IMG/VR virus record: IMGVR_UViG_3300022226_000003
Span: 13,535 to 77,534 of that record
Strand: one strand, 5' to 3'
Length of the DNA: 64,000 nt
DNA from: a virus
Position 1 is the first letter of the stretch. Every line of letters starts with the position of its first letter. Of this stretch, positions 2,995 to 56,761 are shown piece by piece. Both the position numbers and the translations under genes were made by a program. The notes beneath the pieces were generated by a model. The model saw only the letters and a program-made list of their open reading frames with translations. It ran no database searches and had not been told where the DNA came from.

Positions 2995-3458
2995 TGGTTG
3001 ATGCAGTACTCAGTGGGTATAAAGAAGAAGCCCAGTCCGTTGTTTTCAGCGGCACACAGCAAATTAATTCCTTATTGGACAATGAATGGACAGATCCTTC
3101 AGATGTAATTGATAACAGTAGTTTAAAATATTTATTTGCAGATATTGAATTAGTTTTAGGTAGTGCTGCTTTTACAGGCACTGATTCTTCAATTGAATTG
3201 TATTTAATACCTTCAGTTGACGGCACAAACTATCCAGACTGGGTTGGTAATGTCACTACCGACGAACAGGAAAACAATAAACACTTTATTGGCTCTATGG
3301 TTACGAGTGGATCGACTGCTGCGCAAAGAATGACGTTACGTGCTGTTGCGATGCCTCCTGGTAAATTTAAGTTTGGTATTCGTAGTCGTGCTAATGTGAC
3401 ACTTGCCGCTTCAGGTAATACACTTAAATTTCGTCGTTGGAATTATTCGAGTCAGTAA
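2994..3458 (+). CDS. Hypothetical beta-sandwich virion protein
   Basis: 154 aa; translational coupling. Confidence 0.45.
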   Translation: MVDAVLSGYKEEAQSVVFSGTQQINSLLDNEWTDPSDVIDNSSLKYLFADIELVLGSAAFTGTDSSIELYLIPSVDGTNYPDWVGNVTTDEQENNKHFIGSMVTSGSTAAQRMTLRAVAMPPGKFKFGIRSRANVTLAASGNTLKFRRWNYSSQ

Positions 3459-14763: not shown

Positions 14764-14765
14764 AT

Positions 14766-14783
14766 ACCCCGTTAAATTAACCC
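14766..14783 (+). promoter_or_regulatory. Motif A copy 1 (ACCCCGTTAAATTAACCC), candidate phage RNAP promoter
   Basis: Identical at 55862, one mismatch at 34603; intergenic, upstream of scaffold and capsid. Confidence 0.65.
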
Positions 14784-14866
14784 ATACTATATTTTTTATA
14801 GTATCTATTTTTCTAAAATCATAATACTGTGTATTATGTCTTAAGTTGTACTTGAGGAATAAATTT

Positions 14867-33936: not shown

Positions 33937-34475
33937 AACTGAGCGAACGAAAAAGACATTGCGATAATAATTTAATTCTAAGAAAATTAAATAATATACA
34001 GTTGTCCATGAAAGAGCGAATAGAAAAATTGGAAGAGTACCTGAAGACTTTCCCTCAAGTGGAAGTTCCTCTGGAAGAGTCTTTCGGCTATAATCTTTAT
34101 GTAAGAGAAATCATGATGCCTGCGGGTTCATTCGTGATAGGAGCAATTCATAAATATAAGCATTTAAGTATAATGTTAGATGGTGAGTTGGTGATGTGGA
34201 CAGAGTTTGACGGACTCATTCACTTAAAAGGATTTAATAAAGTCCTTGCAGAACCGGGAATTAAAAGAGTTGGGTACGTATTGCAAGATACGCGATGGCT
34301 CACTGCACATGGTATGGATGCATCAATGGAAATTGGAGATATGGTCCCTTGTTTGACCGTAACGACATATGCTGAGTATACCAAGTTTAAGAACGATGAA
34401 ATGTCACTGATAGACCTAGACGATACTTTGAAGGTTCCCAAGTTCGCCCTGGCCCGAAGTGACCTCCAGATCTGA
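33933..34475 (+). CDS. Cupin-like protein
   Basis: REIMMPAGSFVIGAIHKYKH cupin pattern; ATGA overlap. Confidence 0.6.
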   Translation: MKLSERKRHCDNNLILRKLNNIQLSMKERIEKLEEYLKTFPQVEVPLEESFGYNLYVREIMMPAGSFVIGAIHKYKHLSIMLDGELVMWTEFDGLIHLKGFNKVLAEPGIKRVGYVLQDTRWLTAHGMDASMEIGDMVPCLTVTTYAEYTKFKNDEMSLIDLDDTLKVPKFALARSDLQI

Positions 34476-34482
34476 CGTCTCT

Positions 34483-34623
34483 GCAAAAATTTCGGGGTGA
34501 GCATTATGATGGTGTGCCCGAAAAAATCGCCCCGGAGACGGCAAATGTGGAGCACTCTGTGAGGGGTCAAAAAAACCCCTTTTAAATCAACCACTTACGG
34601 CAACCCCGTTATATTAACCCTTG
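34483..34623 (+). repeat. GC-rich degenerate element ending in motif A copy 2
   Basis: Shares ordered blocks with 55767-55882. Confidence 0.65.
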
Positions 34624-34649
34624 CATTTCTTTTCGAGATAGGTTATAAT
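34621..34649 (+). promoter_or_regulatory. Sigma70-type promoter TTGCAT-N17-TATAAT
   Basis: Perfect -10, 17-nt spacer, at the start of the early region. Confidence 0.75.
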
Positions 34650-34768
34650 AGATCTCATGATAAGAATGTGAGAGACCAATGAGGAAGCAGGTAATACACA
34701 ACTATGAAATATATTTCATAGTAGCGGCCCTCGTTAATTCGGGGGCCTTAAAATTGAAAGGAAATATT

Positions 34769-35210: not shown

Positions 35211-35228
35211 GTTGACAAGGATGTCAAT
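35211..35228 (+). promoter_or_regulatory. CsrA/RsmA-type hairpin TTGAC-AAGGAT-GTCAA
   Basis: ACAAGGATGT with GGA in the loop, upstream of ORF 35252. Confidence 0.55.
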
Positions 35229-45432: not shown

Positions 45433-45768
45433 ATGTATAGTACGTTAACTGTTAAAGGAGTTCTTAGTATGAAAATGCCGTCTGCTAAATCAGGCTATAA
45501 GCCGAAATATAAGTATATGGTGGAGCATTGCAGAACCATCAATGGCAAGATGCTAATTAAGCATTGGATAATGGATAGCTATTCTCAAGCAAGAGACTAT
45601 GCTCACAAGGAACTTCGAAGTGGACTGGGAGGTGATATTTTCAAAGCAAATTCTCTCATCTATACCACAGCATCCTACCGAGAAGGGGTAAGAAAGACAA
45701 AATTCAGCCGTGTATTTGGAGGTCGTTTCGAGCATGTGCTGGTTTTTCGTGTTGAACTTTATCAATGA
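45433..45768 (+). CDS. Hypothetical protein (start may be downstream)
   Basis: Fills the operon gap. Confidence 0.5.
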   Translation: MYSTLTVKGVLSMKMPSAKSGYKPKYKYMVEHCRTINGKMLIKHWIMDSYSQARDYAHKELRSGLGGDIFKANSLIYTTASYREGVRKTKFSRVFGGRFEHVLVFRVELYQ

Positions 45769-46232
45769 TAATTCCGAAAGTAGACAGTAAGCTACCTCGA
45801 TATAATAACGGTAAATGGAAATTTTGCGAACAATTAGATCCCACGAAGTATGTGGGATTTCTATATGTAATTCGAGACAATTACTTAGAACGTTTTTATT
45901 TTGGAAAAAAGAATTTTAAAGTAAAAAGAGGTAAGTTTAAAGGTAAGGAGAGTGATTGGCGTAAATACAACACTTCTTCACCACTCCTTAAAGAACTTTT
46001 TATTGAAAGAGGATTTGAAGAGTTTGAATTCATCGTACTTGAACAATATAAAACACAAGGCACGCTGTCTTATGCAGAAACATGGACTCTATGTGAAGTT
46101 GAAGCACCGACTAATGTTAAATGGTATAATACCAGAATTGAAAAAGTATCGTGGACCGTCAAGGAGCCTATTTCGTCTAGGCACAAAGAAAGACTCCTAA
46201 AAACAATAGCACTGGAGGAGTTTAATGAATAA
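45765..46232 (+). CDS. GIY-YIG-like endonuclease
   Basis: GFLYVI...YFGKK...WRKY..SS...E...YN pattern. Confidence 0.7.
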   Translation: MIIPKVDSKLPRYNNGKWKFCEQLDPTKYVGFLYVIRDNYLERFYFGKKNFKVKRGKFKGKESDWRKYNTSSPLLKELFIERGFEEFEFIVLEQYKTQGTLSYAETWTLCEVEAPTNVKWYNTRIEKVSWTVKEPISSRHKERLLKTIALEEFNE

Positions 46233-47914: not shown

Positions 47915-49855
47915 GTGCAATACGCTGACTTACCGAAAATAATAACACCATGGAGCACTGTTGGTTATCTGACTTACAAACGGACCTACTCAAGAAAGTT
48001 TGAAGAAGAGGAAGACTTACTAGCTGCAGACGCTCCCACAGAAGAATTTGAAGATACTATATTAAGAATCATTAATGCATGTGATGAACAATTTAATTGC
48101 GGATTCACCAAACATGAAGAATATAGATTAGCTGAATATTTCTTAAAATTAAAAGGGTCAGTGGCCGGTAGATTTTTATGGCAAGCCGGGACAAAAACAG
48201 TAGATCGATTAGGCCTACCTTCTCTACAGAATTGTGCTTTTGTGGTAATTGATAGCCCGGTAAGACCCTTCACTTGGGCTATGGATATGTTAGCTGTCGG
48301 TGCAGGTGTCGGGTATAATTTACAAAAACACCATATCGACAAACTACCCACAGTTAGACCGTGGTTCAAAGCGCCTACACGTTATAATGATGGCGGTGCT
48401 GACTTCATAGTACCTGATTCAAGGGAAGGTTGGGTAAAGTTATTAGGTAAGGTGCTAAAAGCTGCCTTTCTGTCGAGCAGCCCCGAAAATGGGACTTTTA
48501 CATTTTCAACACAAATGATTAGGAGTAAGGGCGCACCCATTAAAGGATTTGGTGGCACAGCGAGTGGACCAGAAGACCTAGTTTGGGGGATCTCGCAAAT
48601 CTCCGCCTTATTGGAAAAGCGTAGAAATAAAAAGATAAGACCGATAGATGCTCTAGATATTATGAATATAATTGGTCATATTATTGTGGCCGGAAATGTT
48701 AGGCGTTCAGCCCAAATAGCAATTGGCGATCCTGACGATGTTGAATTCTTGCTAGCAAAAAGATGGGACATGGGCACGATACCTAAATGGCGAGCAATGT
48801 CAAATAACAGTGTAGCTTGTGAAGATATTAATGATTTGCATCCTTATTTTTGGCAAGGGTATGAAGGCAGGGGAGAACCTTATGGTTTAATAAATTTACC
48901 TTTGTCGAGATCTTGCGGAAGGTTAGGAGAAACTTGGTATAGCGACCCAGATGTAGAAGGCTATAATCCTTGTGCGGAGCAATCGCTTGTCCCCTATGAG
49001 ACTTGCTGTCTCTCCGAAGTATTCTTGCCTAATATAGAGTCAGAAGCGGAGTTGATGGATATCTGTGAGCTCCTTTATAGGATTAATAAGCATGCAATGA
49101 CACTGGGATCACATTTAAAAGAAACAGAAAAAGTTGTTCATGAAAATTTTAGAATGGGGATAGGGATGACGGGTATCCTTCAAGCCAGCGAAGAGCAAAT
49201 TAGTTGGCTATCTGAAACGTATAGATACTTACGACGTTTCGATGTTAAGTATTCTCATAAACGCGATTTACCGAGGTCAATTAAACTTACAACAGTTAAA
49301 CCAAGTGGAACACTATCCCTACTTCCCGGCGTGACTGCCGGAATACACCCAGGATTCTCTCAGTATATGTACCGGCGAATCACCATAGCCACTGAACACC
49401 CTTTAACGGCGATGTGCAGAGAAAAAGGTTATCCTGTTGAATTTAAGAAAGAGTTTGATGGAAGTGAGAATTATGGGTCATGCATAGTCACATTTCCTTT
49501 TAAATACTCAGAGGGTACCATTCTAGCTGAAGAAATGACGGCAATAAAACAACTTGAGTGGATTCGTAAATTACAAACGGAATGGTCTGACAATAGTGTA
49601 TCCTGTACTGTCTATTACAGTTCTGAAGAGATACCTGAAATAAAGAGATATTTAGAAAAATATTACAAGAGTCATCACAAAAGTCTTTCCTTTATGTTGC
49701 ATCAAGATCATGGCTTCGAACAAGCTCCTTTTGAGAGTATAACAAAAGAAGAGTATGATGCCCTTGTCGCAAAAGTGGAACCAATAACTGAAATTGATTC
49801 CGCAGATTTTGAGCTAAATGATGAATGTGTGGGCGGAATGTGTCCCGTGAGATAA
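47915..49855 (+). CDS. nrdJ: Class II (B12-dependent) ribonucleotide reductase
   Basis: GNVRRSA, NPCAEQ, TTVKPSGT, C-terminal CVGGMCPVR; no beta subunit present. Confidence 0.9.
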   Translation: MQYADLPKIITPWSTVGYLTYKRTYSRKFEEEEDLLAADAPTEEFEDTILRIINACDEQFNCGFTKHEEYRLAEYFLKLKGSVAGRFLWQAGTKTVDRLGLPSLQNCAFVVIDSPVRPFTWAMDMLAVGAGVGYNLQKHHIDKLPTVRPWFKAPTRYNDGGADFIVPDSREGWVKLLGKVLKAAFLSSSPENGTFTFSTQMIRSKGAPIKGFGGTASGPEDLVWGISQISALLEKRRNKKIRPIDALDIMNIIGHIIVAGNVRRSAQIAIGDPDDVEFLLAKRWDMGTIPKWRAMSNNSVACEDINDLHPYFWQGYEGRGEPYGLINLPLSRSCGRLGETWYSDPDVEGYNPCAEQSLVPYETCCLSEVFLPNIESEAELMDICELLYRINKHAMTLGSHLKETEKVVHENFRMGIGMTGILQASEEQISWLSETYRYLRRFDVKYSHKRDLPRSIKLTTVKPSGTLSLLPGVTAGIHPGFSQYMYRRITIATEHPLTAMCREKGYPVEFKKEFDGSENYGSCIVTFPFKYSEGTILAEEMTAIKQLEWIRKLQTEWSDNSVSCTVYYSSEEIPEIKRYLEKYYKSHHKSLSFMLHQDHGFEQAPFESITKEEYDALVAKVEPITEIDSADFELNDECVGGMCPVR

Positions 49856-49908
49856 GCGAAGCTATCCATAAAAAGGACGCCAAGCAATCCTGGGATTTAT
49901 GATAGAAA

Positions 49909-50181
49909 GCACAAGGACGTGCATTTTTATTAGTAGTGGCAGGCGGGGCTCGGTAGAACTGGGTTGATCCCGTAGTGGCAGGAAATGGTGTGGCAGGCAT
50001 GGAGGGTTGGCCTGGGCGAGTTATGGTGTGATCGGTCTGGAGCGGATTGGTTGGAAAGGGTGTGGCAGGCAAGGTTGGCTAGGTAAGGAGCCGCGAGACG
50101 CGAATTGGTTGGAAAGGGCATGGCAGGCGCGGCATGGTGTTGTCAGGGCAAGCTAAGACTAGGCAAGACAAGCCATGGATT
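49909..50181 (+). ncRNA. G-rich (GGY-NN)n array 1 with a 5' GCAC-AAGGAC-GTGC hairpin; candidate guide RNA array
   Basis: 5-nt period; GGCAGG at 49938, 49977, 49992, 50064, 50122; non-coding on + strand. Confidence 0.7.
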
Positions 50182-50266
50182 ATTTAAAATAAATTACTTA
50201 ATATTATATATATCTATAAAGTCGGGGTATATATAATTTTCAATTACGACTTAGGAGAATGATAAA

Positions 50267-50872
50267 ATGGCGATTTCAATTAAACCAATTAAAAGGCAGA
50301 AAGTATCTTTTCATATTGTTGGGACTACTCCCATGATTCAACATAAATGGGCTGAAAAAGCTATCATGCAAATGCGTGAAAAGCATGCAGGTAAGAAAAC
50401 TCGAGCACGTGATATTAGAAAACCTGAAGAAGAATTTCAAAATGCGTGTTATCTTACTGATAGTGATGAATATGGCTTTCCTCTAATGGGTTTTAAGACA
50501 TCACTTATTACGGCAGCGCATAAAGACATCGGTATTGAAAAGACTTTGGTGAAAAAGTCTATCTTTATTGAAAGTGATGATTCAAATCTTGTCGGTAAAA
50601 TGGAATGTTCTGAACCTATCATGCGTGAAGATTGTGTTCGAGTAGGGGCAGGTAGTACTGATCTTAGATATCGCCCTGAGTTCAGAGAGTGGGCTGCACA
50701 AATTTCTTTTGAAATTGACGGTGAAATGCTCACAGTAGAAGACCTTATTAATTTAACAAATCGAGCTGGATTTGGAGTAGGTTTGTGTGAATGGCGTCCT
50801 GAGAAAGGTGGTGAATATGGTCGTTTTAAAGTCGATACTACACAACCTATTACTACTGAAGATCTGGTGTAA
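50267..50872 (+). CDS. Stand-alone RAMP/Cas7-like protein
   Basis: N-terminal strand FHIVGTTPMI; FPLMGFKTSL helix; C-terminal G-rich loop AGFGVGLCEWRPEKGGEYGRFKV; AGGAG RBS. Confidence 0.7.
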   Translation: MAISIKPIKRQKVSFHIVGTTPMIQHKWAEKAIMQMREKHAGKKTRARDIRKPEEEFQNACYLTDSDEYGFPLMGFKTSLITAAHKDIGIEKTLVKKSIFIESDDSNLVGKMECSEPIMREDCVRVGAGSTDLRYRPEFREWAAQISFEIDGEMLTVEDLINLTNRAGFGVGLCEWRPEKGGEYGRFKVDTTQPITTEDLV

Positions 50873-51345
50873 TGAAAGCACGATGGAAACAAGGCTTTCA
50901 TGCTAAAGTCTCTGCAGATATTGCTGCTACTGAATTTGAAAGAATTCGTCAAAAGAATGGCGGTAATTTAGAAGCACCTTTAGTTCATGATGAAATTTCA
51001 AAAAAGAGAAATCCTTTACACAACACAGTAGAATGGAATGATTCTATAGCTGGTAAAGAGTATAGGTTATATCAAATTAGAAATATGTTACGTGCTATTG
51101 AAGTAATATATCTTGAAAATGATATTCCTACGCCTTCTCGACTTTTTGAAGTAATTTCAATAAAACCAGAAGCTTCTCCTAAAATGAATGTCTATAGAAC
51201 ATTAGAAGATATTCTAGCTGATCCCGAGCAAAGAAAGCAGCTCTTAATGAGAGCAAAAAGAGAACTTGCAGCATGCCGTAAAAGATATAAAGATCTAACA
51301 GAACTTTCAAATGTATTTGATGCAATTGATAGTATCTTAGATTAG
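50872..51345 (+). CDS. Helical partner protein of the RAMP-like gene
   Basis: TAATG coupling; NPLH..VEWND..A..YRLYQIR motif. Confidence 0.65.
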   Translation: MKARWKQGFHAKVSADIAATEFERIRQKNGGNLEAPLVHDEISKKRNPLHNTVEWNDSIAGKEYRLYQIRNMLRAIEVIYLENDIPTPSRLFEVISIKPEASPKMNVYRTLEDILADPEQRKQLLMRAKRELAACRKRYKDLTELSNVFDAIDSILD

Positions 51346-51355
51346 TTTATATTGT

Positions 51356-51549
51356 GATGACAAGGACGTCATCTTAAAGGCTTGCCGAGGATAGGCGTGG
51401 TATTGTTAGGCGTTGCAGGCTTGGACTGGCATAATTGGACTAGGCGTGACAGGGGTCGCGAGGCTTGACATGGTACGGCAGGCGAGGTGAGACGTTAAGG
51501 GGCATGGTGGCTTTCGTTGTGACTTGACATGGTACGGCAGGCGAGGTAA
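51356..51549 (+). ncRNA. (GGY-NN)n array 2 with a 5' GATGAC-AAGGAC-GTCATC hairpin
   Basis: 5-nt register from 51379; junctions at 51414, 51477, 51536; exact 25-nt repeat at 51464 and 51523. Confidence 0.72.
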
Positions 51550-51573
51550 CATTATTAAACTTTAAGATTGTTG

Positions 51574-51701
51574 GCACAAGGATGTGCATTTATTCAGGGA
51601 AATACTTAGGCGCAAAACTCACAGTGCTGAGGATGCGGTGGGCGGCAACCTGCGAAGAACCTTTGCCGAGGCATTTGGACCTAGGTGTTTCCCTAAATAA
51701 A
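51574..51701 (+). ncRNA. GGA hairpin followed by a structured RNA with a ~21-bp closing stem
   Basis: TTATTcAGGGAAATACTTAGG / CCTAGGTGTTTCCCTaAATAA enclosing two internal hairpins. Confidence 0.6.
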
Positions 51702-51724
51702 ATTTACCGCGAGGAGTATTAACA

Positions 51725-51955
51725 ATGTCCAAGAAAGAGGATATAGACCCAGTATATGGCCCTGATTACGGGCATTTAATGACATTGGAGGAATTCAAAG
51801 ATGCCATTCGATGCGGTGCGTTTATTGATGATGATGGAGTGGGAGTATTGGCCACCGCTGACTACTCCACAGACCATCAAATTTCTCCTTCAGCAATATC
51901 TACCGACAAAGAGCTCCCGGAATGGGTGACACATATTGTATGGTATAATAAATAG
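51725..51955 (+). CDS. Small phage protein (FIDDDG...VWYNK)
   Basis: GAGGAG RBS. Confidence 0.65.
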   Translation: MSKKEDIDPVYGPDYGHLMTLEEFKDAIRCGAFIDDDGVGVLATADYSTDHQISPSAISTDKELPEWVTHIVWYNK

Positions 51956-55374: not shown

Positions 55375-55744
55375 AGATCCCGGAAAAATGTCAAATGAAG
55401 AATGGGTGGTGCATTTAATGAATCATCACCCAGCAGGAGGAATCATTCAATCTTTTGTGATTGAAGCATTACGACTATATAGCCGTATTGTTGCACAACA
55501 GGATCCCGTAAATTTCAAAGATCCAGAACAACAAGTAATCAACCCCATGATGTGGCGTGCAATGGGTATTGATGTATATCAACAGGTTTTGCGTAAATAC
55601 GGACAGACCGAAGAGGATAAAGTAGCTATAGCTATAATTCAAGAGATACAAACCAGGGTAGATAAAGAGCGTAAAGAAAAAGAAGAGAAAGATAGACTTG
55701 AAGCTGGAGCAAAAAAGAGCGAGCGGCCGGAATACAAGCACTGA
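55349..55744 (+). CDS. Hypothetical protein
   Basis: GAGGA RBS before ATG 55349. Confidence 0.55.
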   Translation: MRPINTFHKDPGKMSNEEWVVHLMNHHPAGGIIQSFVIEALRLYSRIVAQQDPVNFKDPEQQVINPMMWRAMGIDVYQQVLRKYGQTEEDKVAIAIIQEIQTRVDKERKEKEEKDRLEAGAKKSERPEYKH

Positions 55745-55766
55745 GCTTGCCGGTTACATCGCTGCG

Positions 55767-55882
55767 GCAAAAATTTCAAGTCGCCAGGGGCCAGACAGGG
55801 GCTAAAAAACGTCCCGCAGACGGCCACCGGGGAGCACAGAGAGTACCCCTTTCTGCATAGAACCCCGTTAAATTAACCCTTG
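55767..55882 (+). promoter_or_regulatory. GC-rich element plus motif A copy 3
   Basis: AACCCCGTTAAATTAACCCTTG at 55861-55882. Confidence 0.65.
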
Positions 55883-55976
55883 AAAGGGTTTTGTCATATT
55901 TTTGACAATTGTATCGTTTCAATTAAACGAATCTTACTTAAATGCAAATTTGCATATTTAGCAGAGGAATTTTTAA

Positions 55977-56555: not shown

Positions 56556-56761
56556 GCTACCTTGGGGCTACGTTGCTAAAACATTGTTCGTCCGTGGTGT
56601 GCCTCAATAACGGACCCATAGCGCTGTTTGCCCGTGGCGTCTCCTGGAACGGGCTTCATAATCATGGGTTTTGAGTCTTCCTTTACAAAAAGACTCCATC
56701 TTGTGAAAACTGGTTATTTTCATCTCGATGCTCCTCCATTGGTGGGAGTTTGTTGGTAGCT
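56555..56761 (+). ncRNA. Candidate ~205-nt multi-hairpin ncRNA
   Basis: AGCTACC/GGTAGCT closing stem around at least 5 hairpins. Confidence 0.55.

Follow-up and report, generated by a model that had tools for sequence, protein, structure and literature searches.

The question raised by this locus is whether a G-rich intergenic tract with a five-base rhythm carries guide RNAs and, if so, for which system. The window analysed here comprises 64 kb (64,000 nt) of a 77.5-kb virus record (IMG/VR IMGVR_UViG_3300022226_000003), and the tract in question, array 2 (51379–51549), sits in a 379-nt intergenic gap (51346–51724) which is G-rich with a GC skew of about +0.4. The original prediction read each pentamer of this array as a fixed scaffold triplet followed by two variable bases (NN), the latter forming a gapped target code. 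This reading is supported and is the same as the mechanism published for the vrRNAs of VIPR, as described in the accessible text of that report (bioRxiv 10.64898/2026.04.26.720920). We conclude that the region 49,909–51,587 is very probably a phage VIPR locus composed of an array, vipr, a vap-like gene and a second array.

VIPR (Viral Interference Programmable Repeat), an RNA-guided silencer of DNA with kinship to CRISPR, was first described in 2026 and has been in print since April (bioRxiv 10.64898/2026.04.26.720920). According to the accessible parts of the same report, it is defined by a phage-borne Vipr RAMP together with an accessory vap gene, and its vrRNAs consist of 9–16 pentamers with a fixed GGY triplet and a hypervariable NN. 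Double-stranded DNA is recognized without a PAM by a '1-nt skip' rule (NNxNNx...), leading to transcriptional silencing of rival phages and satellites, and seven types are distinguished, some with 'staggered arrays' in which vrRNAs overlap by 1 nt. A second preprint, in its available text, assigns one Vipr protomer to each pentamer (bioRxiv 10.64898/2026.04.26.720927). Membership of the present locus in VIPR was assessed through the adjacent Vipr homolog and through family-wide GGY/NN statistics.

Array 2 lies on the + strand and its phasing was borne out: 51481–51535 is 55 nt long and divides into 11 pentamers (GGCGA GGTGA GACGT TAAGG GGCAT GGTGG CTTTC GTTGT GACTT GACAT GGTAC) between GGCA junctions at 51477–51480 and 51536–51539. 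The whole unit (51477–51540) comprises the GGCA junction, the 11 pentamers and a terminal GGCAG, the final G of which is also the first G of the next unit (a 1-nt overlap); its NN read GA GA GT GG AT GG TC GT TT AT AC, to which the terminal GGCAG adds AG. The first unit of the array (51379–51417) contains, as had been claimed, exactly seven pentamers in the 35 nt at 51379–51413 (GGCTT GCCGA GGATA GGCGT GGTAT TGTTA GGCGT), five of which open with GG, followed by a degenerate TGCA junction that is itself followed by GG. The second unit (51418–51476) is 59 nt long with internal register breaks, its final five pentamers being in phase with the junction at 51477, and a two-pentamer stub (GGCGA GGTAA, 51540–51549) ends the array after the last junction. 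The exact 25-nt repeat described earlier, CTTGACATGGTACGGCAGGCGAGGT, is indeed present in exactly two copies, which begin at 51464 and 51523 and extend across both junctions, such that about 25 nt around the junction are repeated within array 2. This qualifies the suggestion that the NN code of the unit offers the cleanest query for a target, given that seven NN are unique to the unit and the first (GA) and last three (TT, AT, AC) fall inside the repeat held in common with the neighbouring unit.

The five-base rhythm is evident in both arrays of the locus. Successive GG starts between 51372 and 51572 are spaced by multiples of five in 55% of cases versus 20% after shuffling (p = 0.0015, 2000 shuffles), and the corresponding share in the sister array (49923–50195) is 47% versus 20.5% (attained by none of 2000 shuffles). 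Within the unit at 51477–51540, the G signal at period 5 is equalled in 2.6% of 500 shuffles, and no single-phase period-5 signal extends across the whole of array 2 because of register shifts. Tandem Repeats Finder lists no array in this region, since the NN vary.

The locus belongs to a T7-like phage of 77.5 kb recovered from sediment metagenomes, and all its parts read on the + strand, in the order upstream vrRNA array, vipr (50267–50872), vap-like gene (50872–51345) and downstream vrRNA array (51379–51549). Among the sequencing runs listed, three of sediment-metagenome DNA, possibly where this DNA came from, contain the sequence, and none of RNA does. The upstream array (array 1, 49938–50190) has GGCAGG at 49938, 49977, 49992, 50064 and 50122, corresponding to inter-junction distances of 39, 15, 72 and 58 nt in an irregular register. 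Both genes between the arrays were previously without annotation; the first encodes a 201-aa Cas7-like RAMP homologous to Vipr (phrog_4652) and the second a 157-aa accessory protein (phrog_15946). The phage genome is AT-rich (38.6% GC) with nearly every called gene on the + strand, and its gene set is T7-like, including a single-subunit RNA polymerase, family A DNA polymerase, primase-helicase, class II ribonucleotide reductase (RNR) and ATP-dependent ligase; RNR, ligase and genes of unknown function are the neighbours of the VIPR locus. The T7-like genes and the virus record show the locus to be virus-encoded, as expected of VIPR. Nothing relevant emerged from Rfam, whether the whole window was searched at the gathering score or 49700–51900 at E ≤ 10, and blastn of 49850–51730 against 50,697 phage records gave no match.

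Four hairpins with an AAGGAY loop occur on the + strand (35211–35226, 49909–49922, 51356–51373 and 51574–51587), all flanked by AC...GT and with covarying stems (GTTGAC/GTCAAT, GCAC/GTGC, GATGAC/GTCATC and GCAC/GTGC, respectively). Three of them bracket the vrRNA arrays: GCAC[AAGGAC]GTGC (49909–49922) is located 15 nt upstream of array 1, GATGAC[AAGGAC]GTCATC (51356–51373) directly 5' of array 2, and GCAC[AAGGAT]GTGC (51574–51587) 24 nt past array 2. The fourth precedes an early gene, and none was found in 27 other loci (26 from IMG/VR plus Gordonia phage ODay). The hairpin core ACAAGGAYGU resembles what we take to be the CsrA SELEX consensus, and it is possible that these hairpins are processing or protein-binding sites. 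Beyond the last hairpin, the leader of the next gene (76 aa; 51588–51724) has a predicted 14-bp stem in which GGGAAATACTTAGG pairs with CCTAGGTGTTTCCC at 51588–51700, enclosing ~80 nt; the region 51560–51724 has no counterpart in the same 27 loci and no Rfam match.

Other features of the phage genome were noted in passing. A 22-mer, AACCCCGTTAWATTAACCCTTG, occurs three times in intergenic positions on the + strand (14765–14786, 34602–34623 and 55861–55882, with 0, 0 and 3 mismatches; 0 expected in shuffles) and resembles a promoter for the RNA polymerase that the phage itself encodes. Further blocks are common to the elements at 34470–34650 and 55740–55910, with a mean column identity of 74%. 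A 194-nt intergenic gap (56556–56749) following a 192-aa gene contains two similar GC-rich hairpins, GTCCGTGG...ACGGAC and GCCCGTGG...ACGGGC, and a GIY-YIG SegE-like homing endonuclease gene (45765–46232) lies between the exonuclease and primase-helicase genes.

The protein encoded by the first gene is, by sequence comparison, a Vipr homolog, Vipr being a minimal RAMP composed of an RRM core, a G-loop and a thumb. Searched against PDB sequences with phmmer it had one match, 36pp_D 'SUSP1 Vipr protein' (E 1.3e-7, with only residues 117–193 aligned), and a profile built from 16 relatives aligned to 36pp over nearly the full length (E 6.3e-13; profile 12–188, chain 5–188). An AF2 model of the protein (mean pLDDT 84.8) gave 71 Foldseek matches at E ≤ 0.001, of which the top ones were Csm3 and type VII Cas7 (E 3e-6 to 3e-4, TM 0.42–0.56). 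In the SUSP1 Vipr, the first triplet base (G1) is contacted by H17 and D177, G2 by R138 and W178, and Y3 by R179 together with a narrow pocket, as reported in the available text of bioRxiv 10.64898/2026.04.26.720927. The residues H26, R136 and E175-W176-R177 of the present protein align with H17, R138 and D177-W178-R179 of SUSP1, with a single D to E replacement, and the putative GGY-contacting residues are accordingly conserved by alignment. All 40 alignment-invariant residues are retained in the window's Vipr, and both vipr and the vap-like gene are intact.

The pairing of vipr with a second gene is present here and conserved among relatives, as expected of a two-gene VIPR system. A homolog of the 157-aa protein was identified by tblastn 3' of vipr in 23 of 26 related IMG/VR loci and in Gordonia phage ODay, sometimes with an array between the two genes. 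A further 33 phage records, from Mycobacterium and Gordonia phages and one cyanophage, hold homologs, and among the Mycobacterium and Gordonia matches listed these are encoded just downstream of the Vipr match. A word-based search for related loci with this protein returned none because exact peptide words are not shared, no fitting family was found in Pfam, and tblastn gave no match in Felixounavirus. Its AF2 model (mean pLDDT 90.8) has a winged-helix-like N-domain and a long C-terminal helix; VIA-align scored it at Z 5–6.3 to winged-helix DNA-binding domains, values that are weak and under the safe level, and Foldseek returned nothing at E ≤ 0.001. The model thus hints weakly at DNA binding, short of proof, in agreement with the prediction of some vap proteins as DNA binders in the accessible text of bioRxiv 10.64898/2026.04.26.720920.

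A search of IMG/VR with the 201-aa protein retrieved 26 loci at 38–58% identity, and the total set fetched by Vipr homology amounts to 40 distinct IMG/VR contigs (41 loci). These contigs carry like arrays, most of the first 26 loci having long arrays beside vipr. Phased units were found beside vipr in 21 of these 26 (23 with a looser junction) and in all 15 loci of the second set. The distances of at least 30 nt from one GGCAGG to the next equal 4 mod 5 in 108 of 143 cases in the window plus 26 loci, mostly 49, 54, 59 or 64 nt. The same sources yielded 101 unique phased units with 1,041 pentamers, in which the columns are G (95%), G (89%) and Y (94%) followed by near-uniform NN, with GGY making up 81% of triplets. 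The NN entropy is 3.4–3.9 bits of a possible 4, falling to 2.9 bits in the last pentamer where AT or TT predominate, and 79 of the 101 units have 9–12 pentamers. The pattern is unmistakable in relatives, pristine arrays (L015, 2063–2590; L008, 4116–4650) consisting of GGCA and then 9–13 copies of GGTNN. In phage ODay, whose Vipr is 39% identical to that of the window, runs at 3129–3183, 3183–3222 and 3222–3271 share their boundary nucleotides and are located between vipr and vap. The arrays therefore form a large family of the form GGCA + (G-G-Y-N-N)n in which a fixed triplet alternates with near-random NN, and they have the 1-nt overlap and 4+5n unit length of staggered arrays, with a 4-nt GGCA step.

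Some guides recur among related contigs. L008/L015, L013/L016 and L014 have guides that are common to them or differ by 1–3 NN bases (e.g. TA/AA.AC.AT.TA.GC.CC.GA.TG.AG.CA.AA), and several different guides finish in a common ...GC.AC.TT. From such shared and near-identical guides it follows that arrays evolve by unit duplication combined with point changes in the NN.

The family follows the vrRNA pentamer pattern closely, the window only loosely. Canonical GGY accounts for only 5 of the 11 triplets in 51481–51535 and for 9 of 18 pentamers in the window's two phased units. This share of 50% compares with 69–100% in 18 related loci out of the 21 that have phased units, and makes the window's arrays the most worn but one among sources with phased units. 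Only two of its five GGCAGG-to-GGCAGG distances (39, 15, 72, 58 and 59 nt) equal 4 mod 5, namely 39 and 59 nt, and array 1 contains 3-, 4- and 6-nt steps. A guide caller copied, together with its null models, from the available text of 10.64898/2026.10.15.759431 found no run over the whole phage genome under strict settings (at least 6 units, at least 70% GGY). A relaxed G[GAT]Y caller recovered 51481–51540 as a run of 12 units, 10 of them conforming, as well as a 10-unit run (50005–50054) and a 6-unit run (50142–50171) in array 1; shuffled genomes gave 0 strict and a mean of 1.6 relaxed runs.

The alternative that survives best is accordingly one of decay, in which the window's units are VIPR relics that have lost the ability to load Vipr or to reach a target, and the 59-nt unit stands out only as the copy with the least erosion, phased by a recent junction duplication that left the 25-nt exact repeat. 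The low GGY share, the irregular steps of array 1, the lack of any strict run and the negative target searches described below all fit such a history, as do the TAA and CTT triplets of the unit, which break all three base contacts given in the accessible description of SUSP1 Vipr. Set against this are the intact vipr and vap genes with the full complement of invariant Vipr residues, and the finding that T or A at the second position is common in sub-clades with intact genes (34% T in L004, 18–41% T in L031–L042). The latter implies that G-[G/A/T]-Y may be tolerated, and this looser triplet fits 10 of the 12 in the unit when the terminal GGCAG is included. We consider decay unlikely on balance; nonetheless, because the poor GGY, the absence of a strict run and the register breaks occur despite intact genes, we keep a worn or no longer working locus as a serious subordinate explanation. 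Under the preferred reading as a VIPR locus, the unit is perhaps a guide of reduced strength, or one read by a Vipr that tolerates G-[G/A/T]-Y.

A much less credible explanation is that the arrays are a non-guide G-rich element, such as an RNA sponge for a ring-shaped, TRAP-like protein reading a triplet and its spacer, an R-loop-prone origin before an AT-rich region, or a G-quadruplex tract. It can draw on the strong G skew of the arrays (0.4–0.5), the AT-rich DNA following array 1, and a triplet plus 2-nt spacing that presumably resembles TRAP sites. It leaves the 4+5n unit lengths without explanation, and the arrays occur in linkage with a Vipr homolog in the 40 distinct contigs that were fetched by Vipr homology and, with their fixed GGY and free NN, match exactly the vrRNA grammar as given in the accessible text of the VIPR report; we regard it as highly improbable. 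A TRAP-like ring, R-loop origin, G-quadruplex, primase sites and a mini-CRISPR were all dropped after the Vipr match, and a CsrA sponge was dropped for lack of GGA enrichment relative to GGN in general (8 of the 45 GG of array 1). Chance periodicity in a G-rich intergenic spacer, for which the missing single-phase signal over the whole array could be cited, is refuted by the GG-spacing shuffles, the scarcity of runs in shuffled genomes and the family-wide distance and pentamer statistics that agree with a real rhythm, and its probability is negligible.

If the locus is a VIPR system, its mode of action can be posited from the work on SUSP1 and Pseudomonas fulva, as set out in the available text of bioRxiv 10.64898/2026.04.26.720920 and 10.64898/2026.04.26.720927. 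The array would be transcribed together with the operon, and Vipr would assemble on the RNA as a filament with one protomer per pentamer, sequestering the GGY and presenting the two N bases. These NN would pair with double-stranded DNA reading NNxNNx..., one base being skipped per unit, and the resulting R-loop triplex would then keep a competing mobile element from being transcribed. The 59-nt unit would represent one guide, made up of its 11 pentamers and the terminal GGCAG. The original prediction was right in expecting a gapped reading, although it had not singled out the published model of one skipped base among the possible gaps.

Natural VIPR targets are reported to match at least 80% of the NN under the 1-nt skip rule, with no self-target (accessible text of bioRxiv 10.64898/2026.04.26.720920). 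Searched as a 22-base NNx pattern, the unit had no exact match in any of viral_contigs, genome_contigs and metagenome_contigs and, with up to 3 mismatches allowed, 0 in the window and 0 in five related whole virus records (334,669 bases). The 18-base core of this pattern had 0 matches in viral_contigs and 5 in genome_contigs, the latter agreeing at 18–20 of 22 positions. Two of these represent a single gene found in two related MAGs, in which an ILVGDxxAS motif, presumably typical of FolD, is conserved; another corresponds to the C-terminal end of a protein carrying GTGLGLSIV, a motif which we take to be typical of histidine kinases; and two fall outside the longest open frame. We read these five matches, located in unrelated genes, as chance scatter. 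Three pristine guides from relatives (L008/L015, L008/L014/L015 and L013/L016) likewise had 0 exact matches in viral_contigs.

The gapped-pattern search with shuffled controls that had been proposed as a check on the NN code gave nothing above background. When 105 guides were compared with the phage genome and 26 loci (441,342 positions), no best score beat the maximum of 20 shuffles by more than 1 match. Across 93 guides, gap models 0, 1 and 2 had mean best identities of 0.734, 0.739 and 0.739 versus 0.739, 0.740 and 0.742 when shuffled, and gap model 3 matched only the arrays themselves. No self-targets above shuffles were found in the phage's own genome, an absence likewise reported for published VIPR systems in the accessible text of 10.64898/2026.04.26.720920. 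These searches were small in scope or, for the collection scans, confined to exact matches, and the lack of a target therefore does not refute targeting.

The related loci also provide a lead on how the scaffold triplet might vary with the protein. The residue at the W position of E-W-R stacks on G2 in SUSP1, according to the available text of 10.64898/2026.04.26.720927. In ten distinct contigs (13 loci, the contigs L020/L030, L021/L028 and L023/L029 having been fetched twice) the G-loop of Vipr has E-M-R in place of E-W-R, and T is more frequent at the second pentamer position of their arrays. GTT-NN makes up 72–85% of pentamers in L021/L028 and L023/L029, and second-position T reaches 31–47% in seven of the eight other E-M-R contigs (L020/L030, L031–L034, L039 and L042); the exception is L012, which is E-M-R yet has 0% T and 94% G at this position. 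The E-W-R contigs with phased units have 0–34% second-position T; L035–L038 and L040 served as the comparison for the T-rich E-M-R contigs. Among close relatives, all 51–53% identical to L021, the difference is in the expected direction, with 31–41% T in E-M-R contigs versus 18–31% in E-W-R contigs, a comparison confounded by phylogeny as these contigs are mutually related.

Because of this relatedness we treat the association between E-M-R and T as a lead and not as a test; the accessible text of 10.64898/2026.04.26.720927 makes no mention of it. That the VIPR scaffold triplet is itself evolvable in this clade, tuned by one G-loop residue, is an idea we put forward tentatively and consider rather doubtful. 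If the link were causal, Vipr–vrRNA pairs with different scaffold triplets would be orthogonal, shielding a phage from the solo vrRNAs of its rivals, and the G-[G/A/T]-Y units of the window would represent a working dialect and not decay. Separately, the residue three before the E of the G-loop is either I/V or L. In a by-eye tally of L001–L026 that ignores relatedness, loci with G-I/V-x-E-W-R-P are mostly GGC-NN (12 of 13) and those with G-L-x-E-[W/M]-R-P mostly GGT or GTT (9 of 10); the window has G-L-C-E-W-R-P and mixed triplets.

Comparison with known systems places the locus closest to VIPR with staggered arrays, as these are described in the accessible text of bioRxiv 10.64898/2026.04.26.720920. 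It resembles them in being phage-encoded, in pairing a lone Vipr RAMP with one accessory gene flanked by GGY/NN arrays, and in the 1-nt overlap of successive vrRNAs, here a 4-nt GGCA step with the final G in common. It differs from them in the degeneracy of the window copy, whose best unit has GGY in 5 of 11 triplets, and in the conservation of ~25 nt per junction within the array. The available supplement text of the same report names no such clade.

Type II VIPR, known from Escherichia phage SUSP1 and a P. fulva prophage, is alike in its homologous Vipr (E 6.3e-13) with the same G1/G2/Y3 contacts and, according to the accessible text, in the placement of one vrRNA region before vipr-vap and an array after it, with 9–16 pentamers per guide. 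The sequence similarity is low, however, with a near-full-length alignment obtained only with the profile, and a SUSP1-like vap is not detectably related to the accessory gene of the window. The invariant ~40-nt 3' tail with a pseudoknot reported for type II is also absent here, where units abut at GGCA. The locus thus belongs to the staggered-array part of the VIPR family and, because it lacks the 3' tail, is not type II-like in RNA architecture.

The Cas7 filaments of Class 1 CRISPR systems (Csm3, type VII Cas7) share with Vipr the fold and the principle of a filament whose protomers line up along a guide RNA and turn bases outward at regular intervals. Unlike these, the present system has a period of 5 instead of 6, with 2 of 5 guide bases pairing, and an identity as CRISPR-Cas was ruled out as the locus has no CRISPR repeat-spacer array and no further cas genes. 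This kind of system has been known since 2026, and the locus adds a fairly degenerate new example of it. Its main value lies in correct annotation, in clean natural guides for target mining and in the lead on co-variation between scaffold triplet and protein. It places VIPR in a lytic T7-like sediment phage, within a block of DNA-metabolism genes, and the 40 distinct IMG/VR contigs record a large clade of uncultured phages whose staggered arrays lack tails, in addition to the type II systems that have been examined experimentally.
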